Positions 27,712-37,968 of a stretch of DNA of 38,561 bases are shown here, piece by piece. Origin of the DNA: a bacterium. GTDB lineage: Bacteria; UBP15; UBA6099; JAJRTR01. Positions within the stretch are counted from its first letter, which is position 1, and each line of letters opens with the position of its first letter. The stretch lies in the NCBI GenBank assembly GCA_024278215.1, contig JAJRTR010000072.1, forward strand, positions 1-38,561, given 5' to 3'. The translations under genes and the position numbers were made by a program. The notes under the pieces were generated by a model that was not told the origin of the DNA, made no database searches, and worked only from the letters and a program-made list of their open reading frames with translations.

Positions 27712-28767
27712 TCACATTCGCGGGGCAGGCACGTCGGAAAAATACTTCCGCTTGAAAATCAACGCAACATTCACAAGTCCGATGAGAACAGGCACTTCGA
27801 CAAGCGGACCAATGACCGCGGCAAAAGCGACTCCTGAATCGATGCCGAACACGGCGACCGCCACGGCAATTGCAAGCTCGAAGTTGTTGCTGGCTGCCGT
27901 AAACGACAATGTGGCCGACTGTTTATAATTTGCTCCGACTTTCTTGCTCATGAAAAATGACACAAAAAACATGATCACGAAGTAAATAAGCAGGGGCACC
28001 GCGATGCGAAGCACATCAATCGGAATTCTAACGATATATTCGCCCTTCAGCGAGAACATAACGATGATTGTAAACAATAATGCTATGAGGGTAATCGGGC
28101 TGATCCTGGGAATAAACACATTATGATACCATTCTTTATCCTTTAGCTTTATGAGCGTAAACCTTGTTATGATTCCGGCGATGAATGGAATGCCGAGATA
28201 AATGAAAACACTTTTCGCGATTTCGCCGATTGATATTTTCACAATTGTGCTTTCAAGGCCCAGCCAGGTCGGCAACAGTGTCATGAATACATAGGCGTAA
28301 ACGGAGAAAAACAGGACCTGGAAGATAGAATTAAAGGCAACAAGCCCGGCACAATACTCCGTGTCGCCGCCGGCAAGATCGTTCCACACGATAACCATGG
28401 CAATGCAGCGTGCCAGCCCGATCATAATAAGCCCCATCATATATTCCGGGTAACCGCGCAGGAACACGACAGCCAGTATGAACATCAGGACCGGCCCGAC
28501 AATCCAGTTCTGCACAAGTGACAGGCCAAGCACCTTGTAGTTGCGAAACACTCTGCCGAGTTCCTCGTATTTTACCTTTGCCAGAGGCGGATACATCATC
28601 ATGATGAGTCCTATTGCAATAGGTACATTGGTCGTACCTGCCTGAAACACCGGCTGGGTAATGAATTTAACCCAGGCCTCACTGAAATACCCTGCGCCGA
28701 CTCCCGCCGCCATAGCCAGAAAAATCCACAATGTCAGAAATCTGTCGAGGAAAGAAAGTTTTTTCAT
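27712..28767 (-). CDS. acr3: Acr3-family arsenite efflux transporter
   Basis: [53 protein letters not shown]. Start moved to ATG 28767 because the ORF-track extension begins inside a repeat. Confidence 0.95.
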
Positions 28768-28801
28768 CCTTTTTCTGTTCTCCTTATTGAAGCGATGTGT
28801 G

Positions 28802-29007
28802 TAGCCCGGATTTCTCACAAAGAAATCCGGAAAACCGTGAGAACCCCCATTCTACTGCGTTGCGGCGGCGATTCGGGATCGCTCATATACCTGCATTTTG
28901 CGCAAGAGGCCGGCTGGCCGGCTGCTCCCTCACCACTCACTTGCCGCGCCTTGTATTATTGGGCATTCTTCCGGTTTTTCACCCGCATTTGTGAAATATG
29001 CGGGTTA
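28802..29007. mobile_element. Family B element, full length (206 bp), between arsC and acr3; extra terminal hairpin follows at 29008-29034
   Basis: TAGCCCGGATTTCTC...ATATGCGGGTTA, an inverted homologue of 6587-6792. It is followed by a second GGTGAAATATGCGGGATA. Confidence 0.85.
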
Positions 29008-29043
29008 GCACGTATTGGTGAAATATGCGGGATAATGTTTTTT

Positions 29044-29490
29044 TCAACTTTCAAAACAACCCGGCAAAGTTTCTACAAAGCTTCGAATCTCATCACGTAC
29101 ACGGCGATATATATCCAACTTTTCATCTTCGCTGTCGACTCCGGCAGCCAGAGCGGGAGGATCGTCGAATCCCACATGTATAACTTTTGCTTCTCCTGGA
29201 AAGACGGGGCATGTTTCGTGAGCATGGCCGCAGACAGTCACCACATAATCAAAAGGAATTCGGATCAAATCGCCGACGTTTTTCGACGCATGTTCTGAAA
29301 TGTCCACACCGGCTTCCGACATTACTTTTACAGCGTTTTGATTCAGACCATGTATTTCAATTCCTGCTGAATAAGCATCTACAACATTGCTTTTTAGATG
29401 TCGCGTCCATCCCTCGGCCATCTGGCTGCGGCAGGAATTACCAGTGCATAGAAACAACACTTTCAGTTTCTCTTCAGCCCTGCATTTCAT
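29044..29490 (-). CDS. arsC: Thioredoxin-coupled arsenate reductase (LMW-PTP fold)
   Basis: VLFLCTGNSCRSQMAEGW, VTVC.HAHETCP, FDDP, RVRDEI. Start uncertain (29490, 29556 or 29589). Confidence 0.92.
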   Translation of the reverse strand: MKCRAEEKLKVLFLCTGNSCRSQMAEGWTRHLKSNVVDAYSAGIEIHGLNQNAVKVMSEAGVDISEHASKNVGDLIRIPFDYVVTVCGHAHETCPVFPGEAKVIHVGFDDPPALAAGVDSEDEKLDIYRRVRDEIRSFVETLPGCFES

Positions 29491-29570
29491 TTGTCTTCCC
29501 TGTTCCGCAAGATATCGTGCTCGTATATTTGTTTGAATGCGCCCATTTGTTTCCATGGTCGGCACTTCAT

Positions 29571-29906
29571 TTATGGCGTCACCAGGCAATGTTTATCACC
29601 CTTAGAAAAATAATCCGCCAACAATTCAAGAACATCGTCCCGCACCGTGTAATAAGACCACTGTCCACATTGATAAACATTCACAATACCAGCATATCTC
29701 AACTCTTTGAGATGATGCGACAGGGTCGGAGCCGACACATTAAGTTGATTGAGAATCTCGCAGACGCAGACAGCACCATCAGGAACATCATCCGACCTGT
29801 TTCCGTTCCTGCATTGAACAACATCCGCGTGTCCATTACGGATTATCTCGAACGCCTTGAGCCGGTTCCTGTTCGAAAGCGCTTTAAATATCGTTGATAA
29901 ATCCAT
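29571..29906 (-). CDS. arsR: ArsR-family As(III)-responsive repressor
   Basis: FKALS...RL, alpha3 VCVCEI, S.PTLSHHLKEL..AG. Lies directly upstream of arsC-acr3. Confidence 0.88.
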   Translation of the reverse strand: MDLSTIFKALSNRNRLKAFEIIRNGHADVVQCRNGNRSDDVPDGAVCVCEILNQLNVSAPTLSHHLKELRYAGIVNVYQCGQWSYYTVRDDVLELLADYFSKGDKHCLVTP

Positions 29907-30278: not shown

Positions 30279-32636
30279 TCACCCTGATGTGTCGTTTTGT
30301 TTTATCAGTCTAAGGCTGTTGATTATAACTATGAGAGAAGCGCCCATGTCGGCGAAAACCGCCATCCAGAGAGTAGCGATACCGCCGACAGCCGCAATAA
30401 GAAATACAACTTTTATCAATAGTGAAAGGATTATGTTTTGCTTTATCACATACAGTGTTTTTCTGCTGAGTTTTATTGCGTAGGGCAACTTGCGAAGATC
30501 ATCGGACATCAGGGCAATGTCCGCCGTTTCAAGAGCGGCGTCAGTGCCGGCGGTGCCCATCGCGATCCCGATAGTTGATGCGGCCAGAGCCGGTGCATCG
30601 TTTACGCCATCGCCCACCATAGCAACCGTTCCATATTCGTCGAGCAGAGTCTTTATCGCATCGAGCTTATCTTCCGGCAAGAGGTCGGCCTTGATTTCAT
30701 CAATATCAAGTTTTTCCGCGATGGCCTGCGCTGTCCATAAATTGTCTCCGGTCAACATTATGGTTTTCTGTATTCCGCCCTCTTTAACTTTCTTCAAAGC
30801 CTCCCGGCTTATCTCCCTGACATCATCCGCTATCGCTATGAGGCCGAGTATCGCCTGCCCGTTTCCCACCAGAACAACAGTCTGGCCTTTTCCCTCCAGT
30901 TCCATAAGTTGTTTATCTCTCGCGCTATCGCAGAACCCCATTTCCTCGAAGAGACGATGGTTCCCGATATAAAACAATTCGCCTTCGACTGTTCCTTTCG
31001 CCCCTTTCCCGGTGATGGCTTCAAACTCCTCGGCCTCGGTATGAGACACTCCAAGCTCGACCGCCTTTTCCAATATCGCTTTCCCCAGATGGTGCTCGGA
31101 GCGCGATTCGAGCGCGGCGGCTACCCGCAAAACAGCTTTTACGTCTTTTTCGTCGACCGGTATTATTTCAACCACGCGCGGAACTCCGTGGGTAAGTGTG
31201 CCGGTTTTATCGAATGCAATTGCCTTCAGGTGGCCCATCGCTTCAAGGTATACGCCTCCCTTGATCAAAACGCCGTTGCGTGCTGCTGTGGAAAGTGCCG
31301 TGACGATGGCAACCGGTGTCGAGATAACCAACGCGCACGGACACGCTATAACCAGTAGTACGAGAGCGCGATATATCCACGGTGTGAACGGCTGGTTGAA
31401 AAACAGCGGCGGGATACTCACAACGAGAAGAGAAGCCAGAATCACGAGTGGAGTATAGTACTTCGCAAATCTGTCTACGAATTTCTGAGAGGGCGCTTTC
31501 TGCGATTGCGCTTCCTCTATCATGTGGATGATTCTTGAAAGGGTTGTGTCTTTTGACAGTTTCGTCACGCGCAATTCAACAGTTCCACGTTCATTAAGTG
31601 TGCCTGCGAAAACTTCGTCGCCCGGTTCTTTTTTTACCGGCAGGGATTCGCCTGTTATGGGTGCCTGGTTTATGTACGTGTTTCCCCGGACGACTTCGCC
31701 GTCCATAGGAATCTTTTCCCCCGGTTTTATCAAAACTACTTCCCCGATTTCGATATCTTTCACATCGACATCCACGACAGCCCCGTTCCTGCGAACCGCG
31801 GCATGATTGGGGGCAATCTGCATCAGGGTTCTGATCGCCCTGCGGGCACGATCCATACTGTATGTTTCAAGTAGATTTGCTAAAGAGAAAAGGAAAACCA
31901 CCATAGCGGCTTCCTGCCACTCGCCGATAGCGGCGGCACCAGTCACCGCGATAACCATCAGGCAGTTCATATCGAGACTGCGATTTTTGAGGGCTGTCCA
32001 TCCCTTGCGTGCCGTAAGTGCTCCGCCAGTGACAATCGCCGGGATATATAACAGGTATGTAAGTGAATCCGGGAACTTGTGGATATAACCGTGAAAAATT
32101 GCGGCAAGCAGCAGCACTCCTGACGCGGCTGTTAATATCATTTGCCTGTTTTTAACAAAAAATGATGTCGAAGTGTTTTCCCCATCGTTTTCGGAGTCCA
32201 CAATTTCGGCTTTGAAGCCCACCGACTTAACCGCTCTTTTTATATCTTCCGTCTCGCACGTATGTGTCACAATCACGTTTTGTTCAACGAGGTTGAACCG
32301 AAAATCAAGAATCCCGTTAACGGACAGTAACTTTTTTTCAATAATTGAAGACTCATCCGCACAATCCATTCCTTCAATACTGAAAGTCGTGCTGCTCTCT
32401 CCGGAAAGTACATTTGACGTATAGCCCGCCTGCGATATCCGTTTTATAATCTCTTTTGGATCAACAGAATTATCATCAGCGGCAAGCACCGTGATAGTCG
32501 AACTCATGAGATTGACATTAACCCGCTCAATCCCGTCGAGGCCCAAAAGAGTACTTTCCAACCCTTCCACACAACTTGCGCAGTCGATACCCTCGACACT
32601 CAGTTTGATCTTTTTCCGTCCAGTCTCATTTTTCAT
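30279..32636 (-). CDS. zntA: Zn/Cd/Pb-exporting P1B-2 ATPase with two N-terminal metal-binding domains
   Basis: GIDCASC and GMDCADE HMA domains, TGES, CPC, DKTGT, GDGVNDAP, TM8 ADMG. Confidence 0.9.
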   Translation of the reverse strand: MKNETGRKKIKLSVEGIDCASCVEGLESTLLGLDGIERVNVNLMSSTITVLAADDNSVDPKEIIKRISQAGYTSNVLSGESSTTFSIEGMDCADESSIIEKKLLSVNGILDFRFNLVEQNVIVTHTCETEDIKRAVKSVGFKAEIVDSENDGENTSTSFFVKNRQMILTAASGVLLLAAIFHGYIHKFPDSLTYLLYIPAIVTGGALTARKGWTALKNRSLDMNCLMVIAVTGAAAIGEWQEAAMVVFLFSLANLLETYSMDRARRAIRTLMQIAPNHAAVRRNGAVVDVDVKDIEIGEVVLIKPGEKIPMDGEVVRGNTYINQAPITGESLPVKKEPGDEVFAGTLNERGTVELRVTKLSKDTTLSRIIHMIEEAQSQKAPSQKFVDRFAKYYTPLVILASLLVVSIPPLFFNQPFTPWIYRALVLLVIACPCALVISTPVAIVTALSTAARNGVLIKGGVYLEAMGHLKAIAFDKTGTLTHGVPRVVEIIPVDEKDVKAVLRVAAALESRSEHHLGKAILEKAVELGVSHTEAEEFEAITGKGAKGTVEGELFYIGNHRLFEEMGFCDSARDKQLMELEGKGQTVVLVGNGQAILGLIAIADDVREISREALKKVKEGGIQKTIMLTGDNLWTAQAIAEKLDIDEIKADLLPEDKLDAIKTLLDEYGTVAMVGDGVNDAPALAASTIGIAMGTAGTDAALETADIALMSDDLRKLPYAIKLSRKTLYVIKQNIILSLLIKVVFLIAAVGGIATLWMAVFADMGASLIVIINSLRLIKQNDTSG

Positions 32637-33009: not shown

Positions 33010-33516
33010 CTACAACGCCTCGGAAGATGTTTTTTCAGCGGAATCACCCACATTGCATGAACTCACATCACTCAGTTCCATACTGGACCTGGTGCCTGTA
33101 AACTTACTTCCGTCCGGCGCGATCCACGTAGGTATCTTCTTGATACCTTTTGCTTTACAGAACTCGGAAAACTTCCGGCTTCCGTTCGGACTGCACTCGA
33201 TATAATTGATGTATTTAAAAGACTTTCCGAAAATCGCCTTCTGTTTGGCGCAATTAGGACACCAGTGTGTGCCGTACATTTTGTAGCCTCTGGAAGTAAG
33301 GCATTTTGCCAGTGCGTCATGAGGACCCGGCCGCAATAGGCTTACCGTTATTGCGGAGCCCCCGACAAGCGCGGCTATCGAAAGAATAACGGCAATAACT
33401 ATACGTCGGCGGCGGCGATCCGCGATTTTCTTTTCGACATCCTTCTCAAGGCAGCATTTCTTATATTTCAAACCACTCCCGCAGGGACAGGGCGCATTCC
33501 TCTTTATTGACGGCAT
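33010..33516 (-). CDS. SEC-C zinc motif + TM helix + thioredoxin/glutaredoxin-like domain protein
   Basis: RNAPCPCGSGLKYKKCC, basic stretch plus hydrophobic helix, MYGTHWCPNC..QK..FG, YIEC, IPTW. Confidence 0.8.
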   Translation of the reverse strand: MPSIKRNAPCPCGSGLKYKKCCLEKDVEKKIADRRRRRIVIAVILSIAALVGGSAITVSLLRPGPHDALAKCLTSRGYKMYGTHWCPNCAKQKAIFGKSFKYINYIECSPNGSRKFSEFCKAKGIKKIPTWIAPDGSKFTGTRSSMELSDVSSCNVGDSAEKTSSEAL

Positions 33517-33555: not shown

Positions 33556-33969
33556 CTATCCTATAGCAATAAGCCTCGATTCGGCAGTTTTACGCACCTG
33601 TATAATGGAACTTATGAAACTGTCCAGGTCACTTCTTTCAAGCGGTTTTTCCATATACCGTTTAGCACCGGAAATATATGCAACCAGCTTCGTTGCCAGG
33701 TCTATACGTTCGGAAATGCAGATTACCGGAATATCCGGAACCTGTTTGCCTTTAAAGACATTTTTCAAGAACTCAATCCCTCCGGAATCAGGCATATCCA
33801 GGTCCAGGATAATTACATCCGGCCTTTCAACACTGCACGCTTCCAGTGCATCTTCTGCGGAAAACGATTCGAAGATAATTTCACCCGGTCTGGAAAACCA
33901 CTGGCCGGATGTCTCTTGCAGAAACCTGTCGGCTTCAACGATAAAAACTCTGATCTCTCTGTCTTTCAT
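33556..33969 (-). CDS. Stand-alone response-regulator receiver domain protein
   Basis: PDVIILDLDMP (phospho-Asp), IPVICIS, GAKRYMEKP. GAGGAGG RBS before ATG 33969. Confidence 0.85.
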   Translation of the reverse strand: MKDREIRVFIVEADRFLQETSGQWFSRPGEIIFESFSAEDALEACSVERPDVIILDLDMPDSGGIEFLKNVFKGKQVPDIPVICISERIDLATKLVAYISGAKRYMEKPLERSDLDSFISSIIQVRKTAESRLIAIG

Positions 33970-34039
33970 CTTATATTCCTCCTCACATCGATTTTTCAGG
34001 ACAACCACGGAGCATATCTGTCACATTGTCATGAAAAAC

Positions 34040-34546
34040 TCAGGATATAAGGACAATCGTATTGATTGAAGCCGGCATGAAATTGTTTGTTGCATGATAG
34101 TTTTTACGTATGGATATTGCAGATGATAAATTGAGAGCGTCAACAGGCTTAATGAAAAGGAAAACATTAAAAGGAATTCTTTTAATATCAAGCAGCTTAC
34201 CTCTGTCACCTTTTTTTATAATGAATTGCTTCACGGAATTTGAAATGGATAAAGGAATGTCTTTGCATGAATCGCCGGCACTGCATTCATATCGGTCGAC
34301 AACAACGTTTTTTTGTTCTGCGGGTCCTGATTCCAGCGCATCGGAAGGGATAGCTTCATTGCTGTAATTCGCCCCGCATGTGTTCGGGGGCAAATAAGAC
34401 TTGGCGTCTTCAACCTCAATCGCAACCTGTCCGTCGCTATAAAGACACAGCACCATTCCATCGACTATTCCGGTGCCGAAAAACAGATACCCGAACAGGA
34501 TGAGCATTGCAGTGCTTTTTATGCGATCGGCTTTCTTGAAGATCAT
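34040..34546 (-). CDS. Hypothetical exported/membrane Cys-containing protein, paralogue of 36971..37486
   Basis: N-terminal hydrophobic segment. GMVLC...DGQVAIE, C..GDSCKDIPLSIS and C-terminal SINTIVLIS are shared with the paralogue. Confidence 0.7.
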   Translation of the reverse strand: MIFKKADRIKSTAMLILFGYLFFGTGIVDGMVLCLYSDGQVAIEVEDAKSYLPPNTCGANYSNEAIPSDALESGPAEQKNVVVDRYECSAGDSCKDIPLSISNSVKQFIIKKGDRGKLLDIKRIPFNVFLFIKPVDALNLSSAISIRKNYHATNNFMPASINTIVLIS

Positions 34547-34703: not shown

Positions 34704-35525
34704 TCAGAAAGCATACTGAGCGCTCATAACGTAACCGTTGCCAAGGCCGACCTTTGATGTGGAGTTGATGTCCCCGGCGTCGACGAAAGCGCCCACGAGC
34801 GAGAGATTCTTATTCACGAACCATGCGACATGCGCATCCCAGTAGTCGGCATTTTTAAAATCGCTGAATCTCGCTCCCTGCTTGAACTCCAGTCCCAGCG
34901 CGAGGTTCGGCAAAGGCAGGATAGCCACGTTTCCGAATATCGTGAGATCACGTTTTGAATCGTGCCCGAATACACCCGTCACAAGCTCATCTGTGGACAG
35001 CAGGCCGCCTGATACGAGGATCGGTTTCGATGTGGAAGTAAAAAGTTTCGTCCCGACGATATAAAGGTCCAGACCGGACTTGCTGAAGCCGGCTCCGGGG
35101 TTGATGTCGGTGTCCTTCCATATTCCACCTATCGATACTGCCGGTACAGACTTGTTGCCGTTCTTGTTTTCAGGAACGATAAGATATTTCATACCGAGAT
35201 TGTTCTTATGGATGTTGTCGCCGTTGTCCACGGCGATCAGTTCGTAGCCATAAGATAATTCGAGTCGATCCCCGATAGTTTCGGCCACCCCGTTTGCGAC
35301 CCAGTCTACATTTGCCTTGCCCAGTTTCACGTACCAGCCGCCGATCTGAGGATTGCTCAACCTCTGGCCGGCTTTGGCGTTCTGCCCGGCAGGATATGCA
35401 AGCGGGTTGAAAGCGATACCGCCCACTCCCTGAAGGTTGTTAAGCGGTACGCCCGCAGCGGAGGGAATGGAATTCACGATCAGGATACCTATTGCTAAAA
35501 TGATGGTCTTTACATGCGAGTTCAT
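34704..35525 (-). CDS. Putative outer-membrane beta-barrel protein (DUF3034-like)
   Basis: Signal peptide, N-terminal NNLQGVGG...PLAY, alternating amphipathic strands, WDAHVAWFVNKNLSLVGAFVDAG, terminal aromatic YAF (BAM signal). Confidence 0.65.
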   Translation of the reverse strand: MNSHVKTIILAIGILIVNSIPSAAGVPLNNLQGVGGIAFNPLAYPAGQNAKAGQRLSNPQIGGWYVKLGKANVDWVANGVAETIGDRLELSYGYELIAVDNGDNIHKNNLGMKYLIVPENKNGNKSVPAVSIGGIWKDTDINPGAGFSKSGLDLYIVGTKLFTSTSKPILVSGGLLSTDELVTGVFGHDSKRDLTIFGNVAILPLPNLALGLEFKQGARFSDFKNADYWDAHVAWFVNKNLSLVGAFVDAGDINSTSKVGLGNGYVMSAQYAF

Positions 35526-35574: not shown

Positions 35575-36009
35575 TCACCAGCAGCCCCATCCGCCATATA
35601 CCTGGCGCCCATTCGGATTATTGCCGTCCCATCCGCCATAACCGCATCCGCATCCATAGTAGTGTCCTCCGCTATATGATGCCGGAGCGGGTGTGTAAGC
35701 ACGCGAGTCACCCCAGTTCTGCCGTGACATCTGCTGTCCTCTGTGCCGGTTATAGCTGTACTGATCGGCATAATTACGGTTGTTGTCCCATTGCCGGGAG
35801 TAGTTCACATTCGCCGGATCGTGGCCGCAGCCATAGTAATGTTCATGTCCGCTGTAGTTGCTATTCTGCAGATAGTGTTCACAACCATAGTAATGCTGAT
35901 GCTGCGCGGTCTGTGACACCTGTCCGATCGTAGCCTTTGCAGTCAGAACGACTGCCACCGCAATAATAGCGACCAGTCCGAGTAACTTGATATTCCTGAT
36001 CTTATTCAT
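35575..36009 (-). CDS. Exported His/Tyr/Gly/Cys-rich repeat protein (3 x HYYGC, C-terminal GWGCW)
   Basis: AAGGAG RBS before ATG 36009, signal peptide MNKIRNIKLLGLVAIIAVAVVLTAKA. Repeats differ at synonymous codon positions. Confidence 0.75.
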   Translation of the reverse strand: MNKIRNIKLLGLVAIIAVAVVLTAKATIGQVSQTAQHQHYYGCEHYLQNSNYSGHEHYYGCGHDPANVNYSRQWDNNRNYADQYSYNRHRGQQMSRQNWGDSRAYTPAPASYSGGHYYGCGCGYGGWDGNNPNGRQVYGGWGCW

Positions 36010-36063
36010 CGTTACAGCTCCTTTTTTAGTTTTTTTCGTTTCGCTGACCGGCAATCGCCGAAA

Positions 36064-36846
36064 TCACCAGCAACCCCAGCCCCTGTTGTTCCGCCCGTCA
36101 TAGTGTCCGCAGCCGTCGTAATGCTGATGGTAACCATCCGAGTTGATATAGTGAGAACATCCGTAGTAATGGCCCTGTTCACCATGAGACATGCTGCCGT
36201 TATAATGCCCGCAACCATAGTAGTGGCCCTGGTTGGGACCGCTCTGAGGAAGGGCCGATGTCTGTGAATTACCCTGCAATCGGTAGTCGGCTCCCGGAGC
36301 CGCCGTTTCCATCGTTACGATATTGCCGCAATTGATCATCTCACTACCGAAATACGGATTGCGCGCAGTCGGATATGTCTGAACCCAATTGCTGTTTTTC
36401 ATCGGGCAGTTGAATACGAAGTACCGGCTCGCGAGTTCCGGCGGAAAATAATTCTTCACGAGCGTAATAATTGCTTCACTCAAGGGGGCGAAAGCCGCAC
36501 GGGCTCCGTCCAGTTTGAGTTTTTTATCCGTTAAAGGCTTTGCGGCTTTTTCAACATCACCAAGAGCCTTTTTCAGGTCATTGCCTTTATCCGCACCGGT
36601 AAGCTTCAGAGCGGAATCCACAAACGTGACTATGGAATTCGCATGTTCTCTCACGCCATCTACCGAATCCGCGGTGAGCGCCTCATGAATCCGGAGATAG
36701 CTGAACGTAACCAGATTCATATTGTCCTGCAACGATTTCTCCTGGCCGGCGGCGTGAGATGCACCTGCGAACAATGCACCATATATTGCCATCGTCACCG
36801 CTATTATCGTTACTGCTGTTTTTATCTTGTTTTTTGTAAGTTCCAT
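36064..36846 (-). CDS. Exported DUF3347-like heavy-metal-associated protein with a C-terminal HYYGC-repeat tail
   Basis: AAGGAG RBS and signal peptide. YL.I..AL.AD, AR.AF..LSEA, F.CPM....W.Q......NPYFG..M..CG as in DUF3347/CusB-associated domains. Tail HYYGCGH, HYYGCSH, HYDGCGH, GWGCW. Confidence 0.8.
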   Translation of the reverse strand: MELTKNKIKTAVTIIAVTMAIYGALFAGASHAAGQEKSLQDNMNLVTFSYLRIHEALTADSVDGVREHANSIVTFVDSALKLTGADKGNDLKKALGDVEKAAKPLTDKKLKLDGARAAFAPLSEAIITLVKNYFPPELASRYFVFNCPMKNSNWVQTYPTARNPYFGSEMINCGNIVTMETAAPGADYRLQGNSQTSALPQSGPNQGHYYGCGHYNGSMSHGEQGHYYGCSHYINSDGYHQHYDGCGHYDGRNNRGWGCW

Positions 36847-36970: not shown

Positions 36971-37486
36971 TCAGGTCAGAAGAATAACTGTGCTTAAAGA
37001 ATAAAGCGTTGAATTTACACCATGAGAATATTCTACGGGGTCATTTAAAAAACGATTCAGCGGAAACAGCGCCGTCGGTGTTGCCGACAACACAGCATAA
37101 ACATTATTCGGCAATGGCGATATCTTTAACGCTGTTTTGGCACGCACTATTTTTGCGATAGCTGCAACTGCGGAAATGGAAATGTCGACATCGTGGCACG
37201 AGTCGCCGCAATCTTTTTGTGAATCATCCGCGGCAGTAACAGAAATGCCCCGTGCATTTTTCAGGGGGGCGATTAAGTCGCTTTTTCCCTCATTCATAGT
37301 GCAGAATTCCATATTAACGGCATTGAATTCTTTTTCATCGAGTTCGATGGCAACTCTGCCGTTATCAGAAACACAGAGGACAAGCCCCTCCGCAACCCCG
37401 GCCCCGTAAATCGTATACATGACCAAGATGAGAAGCGCCAGTCGCTTACGTGACTGTAGAATTTTCTTGAAAAAGGTCTTCTTCAT
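36971..37486 (-). CDS. Hypothetical exported/membrane Cys-containing protein, paralogue of 34040..34546
   Basis: GLVLC..DNGRVAIE, CGDSCHDVDISIS, C-terminal SLSTVILLT. Confidence 0.7.
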   Translation of the reverse strand: MKKTFFKKILQSRKRLALLILVMYTIYGAGVAEGLVLCVSDNGRVAIELDEKEFNAVNMEFCTMNEGKSDLIAPLKNARGISVTAADDSQKDCGDSCHDVDISISAVAAIAKIVRAKTALKISPLPNNVYAVLSATPTALFPLNRFLNDPVEYSHGVNSTLYSLSTVILLT

Positions 37487-37526: not shown

Positions 37527-37898
37527 TTAACTTGTTCTGGCCTTCGCCTCTTCCATAAGACAAAGTCCCTGATTCAAAAGACCAACAACGCAGGGATCGG
37601 CAATGGAATAATAAATGTTGTTCCCATTGCGCCGTGTGCTTACGATACCGCGATACACCATCCTCTGAAGTTGATTCGAAACCGCCTGGGGTTTCATCTC
37701 TATCGCTTCGGCCAAATCAGAAACGCATATTTCATCTTCTCGAATAATCGTGTGCAATATTCTCAAACGGGTCTGATTGCCAAGAATCTTGAACATTGAT
37801 TCCAGTTCGGCAGCAGTTTTAATGCTCATAAGACCTCGCTCCCTTATATGAAGCTTCGGTTTGCAGGTTGTTCCGTCTTTCACCGCATCTAAAATCAA
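37527..37898 (-). CDS. ArsR/SmtB-family metalloregulator
   Basis: FKILGNQTRLRIL, EICVSDLA, QAVSNQLQRM, RRNG..IYYS. TTG start at 37898, alternative ATG at 37829. Confidence 0.9.
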   Translation of the reverse strand: MILDAVKDGTTCKPKLHIRERGLMSIKTAAELESMFKILGNQTRLRILHTIIREDEICVSDLAEAIEMKPQAVSNQLQRMVYRGIVSTRRNGNNIYYSIADPCVVGLLNQGLCLMEEAKARTS

Positions 37899-37930: not shown

Positions 37931-37968
37931 ACACAATTACATTATAGCGTGTATTTGTGTTCTTTCAA
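37931..37968 (-). promoter_or_regulatory. sigma70 promoter with overlapping inverted-repeat operator for the ArsR/SmtB-led cluster
   Basis: Minus strand TTGAAA-16 nt-TATAAT. Inverted repeat ACACAATTACA-N8-TGTATTTGTGT (10 of 11) at 37931-37960 covers the -10 box. Confidence 0.7.

Follow-up and report, generated by a model that had tools for sequence, protein, structure and literature searches.

Metallothioneins of the SmtA/BmtA type are cytoplasmic proteins folded around a Cys-rich cluster. The available text on the SilE and PcoE sponges and on the N-terminal domain of PcoB describes exported, disordered proteins that carry repeated short ligand motifs and are encoded beside a P-type ATPase in metal-resistance clusters (PMC5008109, PMC12509749). 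Bufferins belong to the peptides that ribosomes synthesize and that are modified after translation (RiPPs); the accessible part of their description presents them as Sec-exported, MNIO-modified metallophores that occur in a metal-stress context (PMC11626156). They depend on a neighboring DUF692/MNIO enzyme together with a DUF2063 partner. DUF3347 proteins with a CxM module are widespread accessories of heavy-metal efflux, and their sole recorded function is moonlighting in Leptospira. LIC13259 of Leptospira is the only studied relative of this domain that we found, and its Cys108-Pro-Met...Cys133 pair is described as an intramolecular disulfide that undergoes exchange with a cysteine of the host (PMC13344006). 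Here we describe two adjacent genes, A and B, in a DNA stretch of 38,561 nucleotides (the window) that is one whole contig (JAJRTR010000072.1; C42) of a bacterium from the candidate phylum UBP15. Both encode exported proteins with a His/Cys-rich tail, which B appends to a DUF3347 domain. With moderate confidence, we propose from the sequences that B may be a periplasmic metal-handling accessory with a disordered His/Cys capture arm, and that A may be the same arm as a free secreted buffer.

Each protein carries three copies of a short motif and ends in the same five residues (Table 1). The copies in A read HYYGCEH (aa 39-45), HYYGCGH (57-63), and HYYGCGC (116-122); those in B read HYYGCGH (aa 208-214), HYYGCSH (226-232), and HYDGCGH (242-248), and both C-termini are GWGCW-TGA. 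The genome consists of 4,548,219 bases in 207 contigs and is 95.2% complete. Its six-frame translation contains six matches to HY[YD]GC.[HC], every one in A or B, and two matches to GWGCW-stop, which are the ends of A and B. The shorter pattern HY[YD]GC has eight matches, and the open frames that hold the two outside A and B are 24 and 29 residues long. These data confirm three HY[YD]GCx[HC] motifs and a GWGCW-stop on each protein, as the initial annotation had reported, and show that they are exclusive to A and B in this genome. The sequences of both proteins begin with Sec-type signal peptides, and AAGGAG ribosome-binding sites lie 8 nt ahead of the ATG of A and 9 nt ahead of that of B. The position of this site makes an alternative TTG start of A (36054) less likely. 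A shadow-frame artefact was considered and rejected, with a Pfam domain in frame and a ribosome-binding site and signal peptide on both genes. Synonymous differences occur among the motif codons at four of the five fixed positions (His CAT/CAC, third-position Tyr TAT/TAC, Gly GGT/GGC/GGA, Cys TGT/TGC), and the first motif Tyr is TAC in all six copies. The DNA of the copies is 60-90% identical over 20-48 nt. The codon variation noted in the initial annotation is thus real.

The distance from the first to the second motif is 18 residues (54 nt) in both A and B. The two-motif unit of A aligns with that of B without gaps (13/25 identities, E 8e-6), and therefore the two tails are homologous beyond their shared composition. 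They had been taken to belong to otherwise unrelated neighbors, a description that does not hold for the tails. As judged from sequence, the A and B tails are old duplicates of one another, and A looks like a duplicated B-type tail with its own signal peptide. The full cluster H-x-H-Y-[YD]-G-C-x-H packs three His and a Cys into nine residues, and it is complete in the first two copies of A and in the third copy of B. An extra Cys stands between two Trp at the extreme C-terminus of both proteins. The tails (A aa 45-144, B aa 196-260) contain 17-22% Gly, 14% Tyr, and 8-12% Asn. Two other functions were considered for the tails and rejected: heme attachment, as there is no CxxCH, and arsenite binding, as vicinal Cys triads are absent and His predominate.

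The folded part of B belongs to a large family. PF11827 (DUF3347) matches B aa 49-133 at 32.3 bits (cut-off 25.5, E 1.8e-7), which bears out the DUF3347-like CPM domain of the initial annotation. Searched with phmmer, 1.84 billion cluster representatives yielded 2182 matches at E ≤ 0.001. In an alignment of 66 single-domain sequences, C147 and M149 are invariant, and W154, Q156, N163, P164, Y165, G167, M170, C173, and G174 are conserved in at least 90%. All conserved residues of the resulting CxM...W-x-Q...NPYxG..M..CG module are found in B, which reads CPM...NPYFG..M..CG. B lies outside the LIC13259/LIC11441 subfamily because its score against the NCBIfam model NF047615 is 33.6 bits, below the cut-off of 100. 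AlphaFold2 with the family alignment gives a confident four-helix bundle with a small hairpin (predicted local distance difference test scores, pLDDT, of 95-98 in blocks from 41 to 170, with one block at 84). The tail, aa 189-260, scores mostly below 50 and is predicted to be disordered. A Foldseek comparison of the B model with the PDB returned only generic four-helix bundles (best E 0.078) and no functional lead. The context of the family is metal efflux. Among 14 long phmmer matches that we picked, 12 contain a CusB/HlyD barrel-sandwich domain and 11 the heavy-metal-binding domain HMBD. The phylum comparison covered 13 species genomes, this one and 12 others, all from one class and one order. 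The domain of B is present in 8 of the 12, each time with a tail unlike that of B, and stand-alone homologues in these genomes adjoin CzcC-type outer-membrane factors, adaptors, and sigma-54 two-component systems.

The tails of the family were tallied in the best 150 of the 2182 matches, B included. The CxM...C module is present in 144 of them. Forty-three of these stop within 10 residues past the module, 67 are longer with fewer than four Cys and His, and 34 have ligand-rich tails, defined as at least 10 residues with at least four Cys plus His. The 34 ligand-rich tails have no common sequence and include poly-His/Gly, Met/His, CxxC-rich, and Cys/Lys-rich forms. The dissimilarity of these 34 tails among 144 proteins makes hypervariable Cys/His-rich C-termini a trait of the DUF3347 family. 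A Tyr-rich tail that ends in Trp and contains an HY.GC motif was found in just two of the best 150 matches, B and P0003. P0003 is a singleton of 242 aa from a 3,097-base metagenome contig and is 37% identical to B. Its C-terminus, ...HHQHYNGCGHYGEDGYHNDGCCW-stop (HQHYNGCGHYGEDGYHNDGCCW-stop; HQHYNGCGHY...CCW-stop), aligns with the third motif and C-terminus of B, and the ~50 residues ahead of the terminal motif fail to align. Retention of the terminal motif and Cys-Trp while the linker diverged argues for selection at the peptide level, as had been claimed from the codons. P0003 is the best evidence for such apparent selection on the motif and the terminal Cys-Trp. The tail of A and B is most likely a lineage-specific form of the hypervariable tail common in the DUF3347 family, and "new module", the term of the initial annotation, goes too far if applied to just A and B. 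This genome also encodes a second DUF3347 paralogue, of 225 aa, with a Cys-rich tail of the CxxC type. It lies in a region with two CzcC-type outer-membrane factors, an HMBD adaptor, an RND pump, and a sensor kinase/sigma-54 regulator pair. Within one genome, DUF3347 paralogues at separate metal systems bear different tail chemistries.

Searches for relatives of A and of the motif returned little. Word-indexed searches of 5.8 billion protein clusters, within length windows that exclude proteins shorter than 79 aa and longer than 252 or 455 aa, with A, B, and the B tail alone retrieved only the queries from 11, 609, and 1 candidates, respectively. A has no Pfam match at E ≤ 0.01 and no NCBIfam match, and the motif is in neither library. 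A PDB sequence search with A gave a best E of 0.17, a chance match to ribosomal uL4, and the best ESM Atlas score for A was 0.83, under the meaningful level. No paper with HYYGC or GCGHY was among the literature matches listed, where the strings GWGCW and HYDGC were primers, restriction sites, or unrelated words. The motif is thus foreign to characterized families within these libraries, the solved structures, and the literature matches listed, as the initial annotation had supposed. The feature is real, and the motif is undescribed.

A and B lie in a block of genes on the minus strand in the order regulator, orf171, B, A, DUF3034, orf168, receiver, and SEC-C/thioredoxin-like, followed by 373 bases and the ATPase. 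The genes of the block may be co-transcribed. Promoter and terminator scans of the region gave totals not above shuffled controls. The G+C content of the block is 0.42-0.52 compared to 0.514 for the genome, which gives no clear island signal. The transmembrane signature of the ATPase is CPC at 432, N-x7-K at 734, and DMG (D-x-G) at 763. We take CPC in transmembrane helix 6, N-x7-K in helix 7, and D-x-G in helix 8 to denote Zn/Cd/Pb-type (P1B-2) pumps. The arsenite carrier and ArsC genes downstream of the ATPase make this end of the contig a mixed metal/metalloid resistance region. The orf171 and orf168 proteins (~170 residues) bracket B, A, and DUF3034 and share an N-terminal membrane helix and the motifs G-x-V-L-C-x4-G-x-V-A-I-E and C-x2-D-S-C-x-D...S-I-S; they belong to no Pfam or NCBIfam family. 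The C-terminal aromatic residue of the DUF3034 protein suggests an outer-membrane barrel. A DUF3034 homologue (44% identity) on plasmid pIAE1 of Trichlorobacter lovleyi adjoins a P-type ATPase fragment, which makes it a second example of DUF3034 next to a cation pump. The fragment is cut by one of three identical annotated transposase genes in a stretch broken up by insertion sequence copies, and no A- or B-like open reading frame (ORF) lies upstream of the homologue. The SEC-C/thioredoxin-like product has an unusual architecture, with a cytoplasmic SEC-C zinc motif at the extreme N-terminus, a membrane helix, and an exported thioredoxin-like domain.

Table 1. Features of the window and of related loci. 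Positions are those of the window unless they follow the handle of another contig.
Feature	Position	Strand	Description
Protein A	35575..36009	-	144 aa; signal peptide ~aa 1-26 (...TAKA/T), then ~118 residues rich in Gly/Tyr/Asn/Gln
A motifs	35875-35895, 35821-35841, 35644-35664	-	GWGCW-stop at 35575-35592; from six-frame translation
Protein B	36064..36846	-	260 aa; signal peptide aa 1-32, four-helix DUF3347 domain aa ~36-180, tail 181-260
B tail	36064..36306	-	Motifs at 36205-36225, 36151-36171, 36103-36123; GWGCW-stop at 36064-36081
ArsR/SmtB-family metalloregulator	37527..37898	-	First gene of the block; HTH_5; NF033788, 82.7 bits (cut-off 55)
Promoter-like TTGAAA-16-TATAAT	37941..37968	-	11/12; upstream of regulator; consensus match only
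orf171	36971..37486	-	Membrane-anchored, no known family; paralogue of orf168
DUF3034 protein	34704..35525	-	Signal peptide; C-terminus ...SAQYAF; PF11231, E 1e-20
orf168	34040..34546	-	31% identical to orf171, E 8e-13
Response-regulator receiver, stand-alone	33556..34008	-	PF00072, E 1.7e-17
SEC-C/thioredoxin-like protein	33010..33516	-	SEC-C motif, one transmembrane helix, thioredoxin-like domain with WCPNC
P1B-type ATPase	30279..32636	-	Two HMA domains; TIGR01512 (cadmium family), 534 bits (cut-off 313.5)
ACR3-type arsenite carrier and ArsC	27712-29589	-	SBF family; low-molecular-weight-phosphatase-type ArsC; downstream of ATPase
Second DUF3347 paralogue	C47:14658-15335		Same genome
Region of second paralogue	C47:8798-18399		Same genome
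B-homologue, L007	L007:1222-2040	-	CcmH-like segment in place of the tail
B-homologue, P0103	L008:369-1292	-	CcmH-like segment in place of the tail
DUF3034 homologue	L070:9001-10780		T. lovleyi plasmid pIAE1
22-residue tandem repeat	L025:1659-2678; L024:783-3044; L028:978-3095	+; +; -	H-x-H-G-x-G-C-G-H-Y-Y-x-x-G-x-W; Planctomycetota/Verrucomicrobiota
22-residue tandem repeat, further bearers	L051:3-2909; L018:1878-2549; L026:73-330	+; +; +	Up to 13 copies
PEGA-domain family	L013:1185-2813; L032:13-993; L064:1083-2762	+; -; +	[RH]-H-[RH]-HYYGCGHYGY in His/Tyr/Gly-rich region; 3/3 members
PEP-CTERM proteins, alphaproteobacterial	L014:1842-2198; L027:1800-2300; L035	+; +; 	Mostly Gly/Ser/Thr; single H-T-H-Y-N-G-C-G-H-Y
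Exported motif bearer	L043		His/Gly/Arg/Trp-rich
ORFs of 45-49 residues	L040:1680-1817; L045 ~1735-1880	+; -	Signal peptide and ~22-residue His/Cys/Gly peptide ending GCGHY-stop; coordinates approximate

Genome and metagenome contigs were scanned for DNA able to encode H-Y-[YNDH]-G-C-G-H-Y, a pattern that is derived from B and demands Tyr and Gly at fixed places, and the 2-kb flanks were inspected. The scan found 19 loci in genome contigs and 38 in metagenome contigs, close to a rough chance estimate, and none of them resembles A or B, in a set of contigs that evidently lacks the one with P0003 and may lack this genome. Collapsing duplicates left 42 peptide contexts, of which 18 are in open frames of 80 residues or longer. 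A His stands two residues upstream of the match in 11 of these 18 and in none of the 24 in short frames. One group of bearers consists of Planctomycetota/Verrucomicrobiota proteins with a 22-residue tandem repeat. A C-terminal TPR region is present in some, and an 86-aa lipoprotein-like ORF among them ends HHHGCCGGW-stop. In 37 repeat units from unrelated proteins, numbered relative to the Cys (present in 37), His -6 is found in 35, His -4 in 37, Gly +1 in 36, His +2 in 37, and Trp +9 in 35. A set of ligands would be expected to show conservation of this degree. The repeat is covered by neither a Pfam nor an NCBIfam model. An AlphaFold model of a three-repeat window, with 19 windows as the alignment, has a mean pLDDT of 47 and gives a low-confidence hint of hairpins after each CGH.

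A position matrix built from the 22-residue units picks out the motifs of A, B, and P0003, and none of 2000 composition-preserving shuffles of A or of the B tail reaches the observed sum. The result holds without the six units that match the search pattern, though the matrix then picks up two of the reduced copies in a shifted register. A copy 2, B copy 3, and P0003 have all of His -6, His -4, Cys 0, Gly +1, and His +2. In A copy 1 the four ligands are kept and +1 is Glu, A copy 3 has Cys at +2, and His -6 is missing from A copy 3 and B copies 1 and 2. At +9 the A and B copies carry Tyr, His, or Arg where the repeat has Trp, and their period is 18 residues against 22. The A/B motif resembles the repeat without clear membership, either by common descent or by convergence.

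The wider motif occurs in other exported or surface proteins (Table 1). It is found in all three members identified of a PEGA-domain family, two of which adjoin a family-2 glycosyltransferase, and in PEP-CTERM proteins, which have long unannotated frames on the opposite strand and uncertain gene calls. In the peptides of the metagenome loci L040 and L045 a Gly takes the place of the His two residues ahead of the motif, and both adjoin a YjbR-family gene; these ORFs may encode tiny secreted metal-binding peptides. The small ORFs of L026, L014, and L043 sit across from long unannotated frames in DNA of high GC, and some of them may not be genes. We tentatively suggest, as a possibility that is more doubtful than secure, that H-x-H-x3-C-G-H, often with aromatic residues after it, is a discrete undescribed His3Cys mini metal site repeated in exported proteins of at least five lineages (this candidate phylum, Planctomycetota, Verrucomicrobiota, an Acidobacteriota-type PEGA family, and the alphaproteobacterial PEP-CTERM proteins). 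A and B would then carry an 18-residue-period version of it on a metal-efflux accessory domain. In a bolder form of this proposal, the adjacent Tyr and Cys would form a metal-templated cross-link.

If the tails of A and B are capture arms, each His/Cys cluster would bind one borderline or soft divalent cation, most likely Zn(II), Cd(II), or Pb(II) because of the type of the adjacent pump. A and B would buffer or hand on metal delivered to the periplasm by the P1B ATPase, and the ArsR/SmtB repressor would control expression of the block. The DUF3034 barrel is a possible outer-membrane exit for the metal, and the membrane thioredoxin-like protein possibly keeps the tail cysteines reduced. Several observations weigh against this scheme. 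The first His is absent from A copy 3 and B copies 1 and 2, which are reduced to His/Cys/His or His/Cys/Cys, and metal binding does not account for the abundant Tyr, Asn, Gln, and Trp of the tails. Our literature search on DUF3347 found a metal-binding measurement for no DUF3347 protein nor for this tail, and the available text on LIC13259 mentions thiol-disulfide exchange of its Cys pair and no metal (PMC13344006). The ATPase is tied to the block only by adjacency, as the 373-base gap has promoter-like sites of its own, and the regulator promoter and the ATPase upstream region share no word of 10 or more bases that could be a common operator. The gene set lacks comparative support: none of the 12 further genomes of the phylum has A or DUF3034, and orf171 and orf168 were not found there except for one weak match. 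Absence from the phylum is weak evidence because the sample is 13 species genomes from a single class and order. Finally, no metal genes were found in the 2-kb flanks of the wider-motif loci, where 14 of 34 ORFs have Pfam matches and none is metal-related; the matches include glycosyltransferase, MscS, YjbR, ribosomal L25, YchF, and a transposase. This result weakens the general metal claim. The initial annotation had proposed a pattern search with tabulated neighborhoods as a check on its metal assignment. The search of genome and metagenome contigs gave neither a locus like that of A and B nor linked metal genes within 2 kb, and the metal context holds for the surroundings of A and B and for the fusion of the B-domain family to CusB-type adaptors.

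An alternative is that the tail cysteines, perhaps with nearby Tyr or Trp, exchange disulfides with the membrane thioredoxin-like protein in a periplasmic electron relay or redox sensor. The B-homologue of L007 is flanked by the same receiver and SEC-C/thioredoxin-like pair as in the window. In this protein and in P0103, both from the same order, the tail is replaced by a CcmH-like segment with sub-threshold scores of 22.5 and 17.7 bits (cut-off 25), and an AhpC/TSA-thioredoxin protein is encoded beside both. The available text on LIC13259 describes the equivalent Cys pair as exchanging a disulfide (PMC13344006). However, each motif of A and B has a single His-flanked Cys and no CxxC pair, tails with only His or Met and no Cys are common in the DUF3347 family, and the invariant three His and one Cys of the wider repeat suit ligands better than redox chemistry. 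A redox arm is therefore unlikely. A structural, adhesive, or nonspecific role for a low-complexity Gly/Tyr/Asn/Gln-rich tail, with the motif as a by-product of repeat expansion, is likewise improbable. The composition of the tails, the failure of the word searches to find relatives, and the presence of the broad motif in PEGA and PEP-CTERM surface proteins all fit such a role, but the motif is retained through synonymous codon changes in six diverged copies and in P0003, where the linker is not, and the ligand positions are near-invariant in the 37 units elsewhere. A modified-peptide role is very unlikely. In it, A would serve as a precursor and B as a carrier, with cross-links or other modifications on Cys, Tyr, His, or Trp introduced by an off-contig maturase, or autocatalytically with metal and oxygen (e.g., a Tyr-Cys link). 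In its favor, A is small, Sec-exported, and bears repeated Cys motifs, in outline like the bufferins, a Tyr lies two to three residues from the Cys in every copy, A, B, P0003, and the L026 protein all have Trp as the final residue and a Cys within the final five, and the genes upstream are unseen on a contig that ends 660 bases beyond the regulator. Against it, PF05114 (MNIO/DUF692) has no match in the 95.2% complete genome, the window has no radical-SAM, cyclase, or protease gene, and B and P0003 carry this tail on a folded domain of 150 residues, an unusual arrangement for a precursor. A RiPP-like role had been allowed for in the initial annotation, whose remark that no maturase lies in the window is correct, whereas the genome-wide lack of MNIO speaks against the role itself.

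Hypervariable ligand-rich C-termini, together with one tail that appears to have been copied into a free secreted protein, provide a testable handle on the periplasmic role of DUF3347. If H-x-H-x3-C-G-H is a true metal site, it would be a short portable binding motif, possibly a tag, that aids the annotation of "low-complexity" exported proteins. This recurring unit is the part that most deserves follow-up.

A resembles the metallothioneins as a small metal-island protein with proposed Cys/His metal sequestration. It is exported rather than cytoplasmic, and the metallothioneins are much richer in Cys: A has 5 Cys in its 144 aa, all told in ~118 mature residues, and no PF02069-type or other family match. 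The metallothionein-like label of the initial annotation is therefore not retained. A resembles the bufferins as a small, Cys-containing protein that is Sec-exported by its signal sequence, but the precursor families differ and an MNIO enzyme is found neither in the genome nor in the window. The proteins with the 22-residue repeat share with A and B the ligand spacing, the Gly-Cys-Gly-His core, and export, and their small member also ends in a Cys-containing, Trp-terminated sequence; they differ in period, in the near-invariance of His -6 and Trp +9, which vary in A and B, and in having no DUF3347 domain. In function, A is like SilE and PcoE as presented in the available text, and the B tail is like the His/Met-rich disordered regions of the PcoB type. 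SilE and PcoE use His and Met for Cu(I) and Ag(I), whereas A and B have His and Cys with Tyr and Trp beside a Zn/Cd/Pb-type pump, and there is no sequence similarity (no Pfam match). The closest relationship is with the DUF3347 proteins of the LIC13259/LIC11441 type. B aa 36-180 belong to this family, from which B, alone with P0003 among the best 150 matches, is set apart by its Tyr-rich tail with HY.GC motifs and a terminal Trp, and B shares with it export, the module, and the habit of Cys/His/Met-rich tails.

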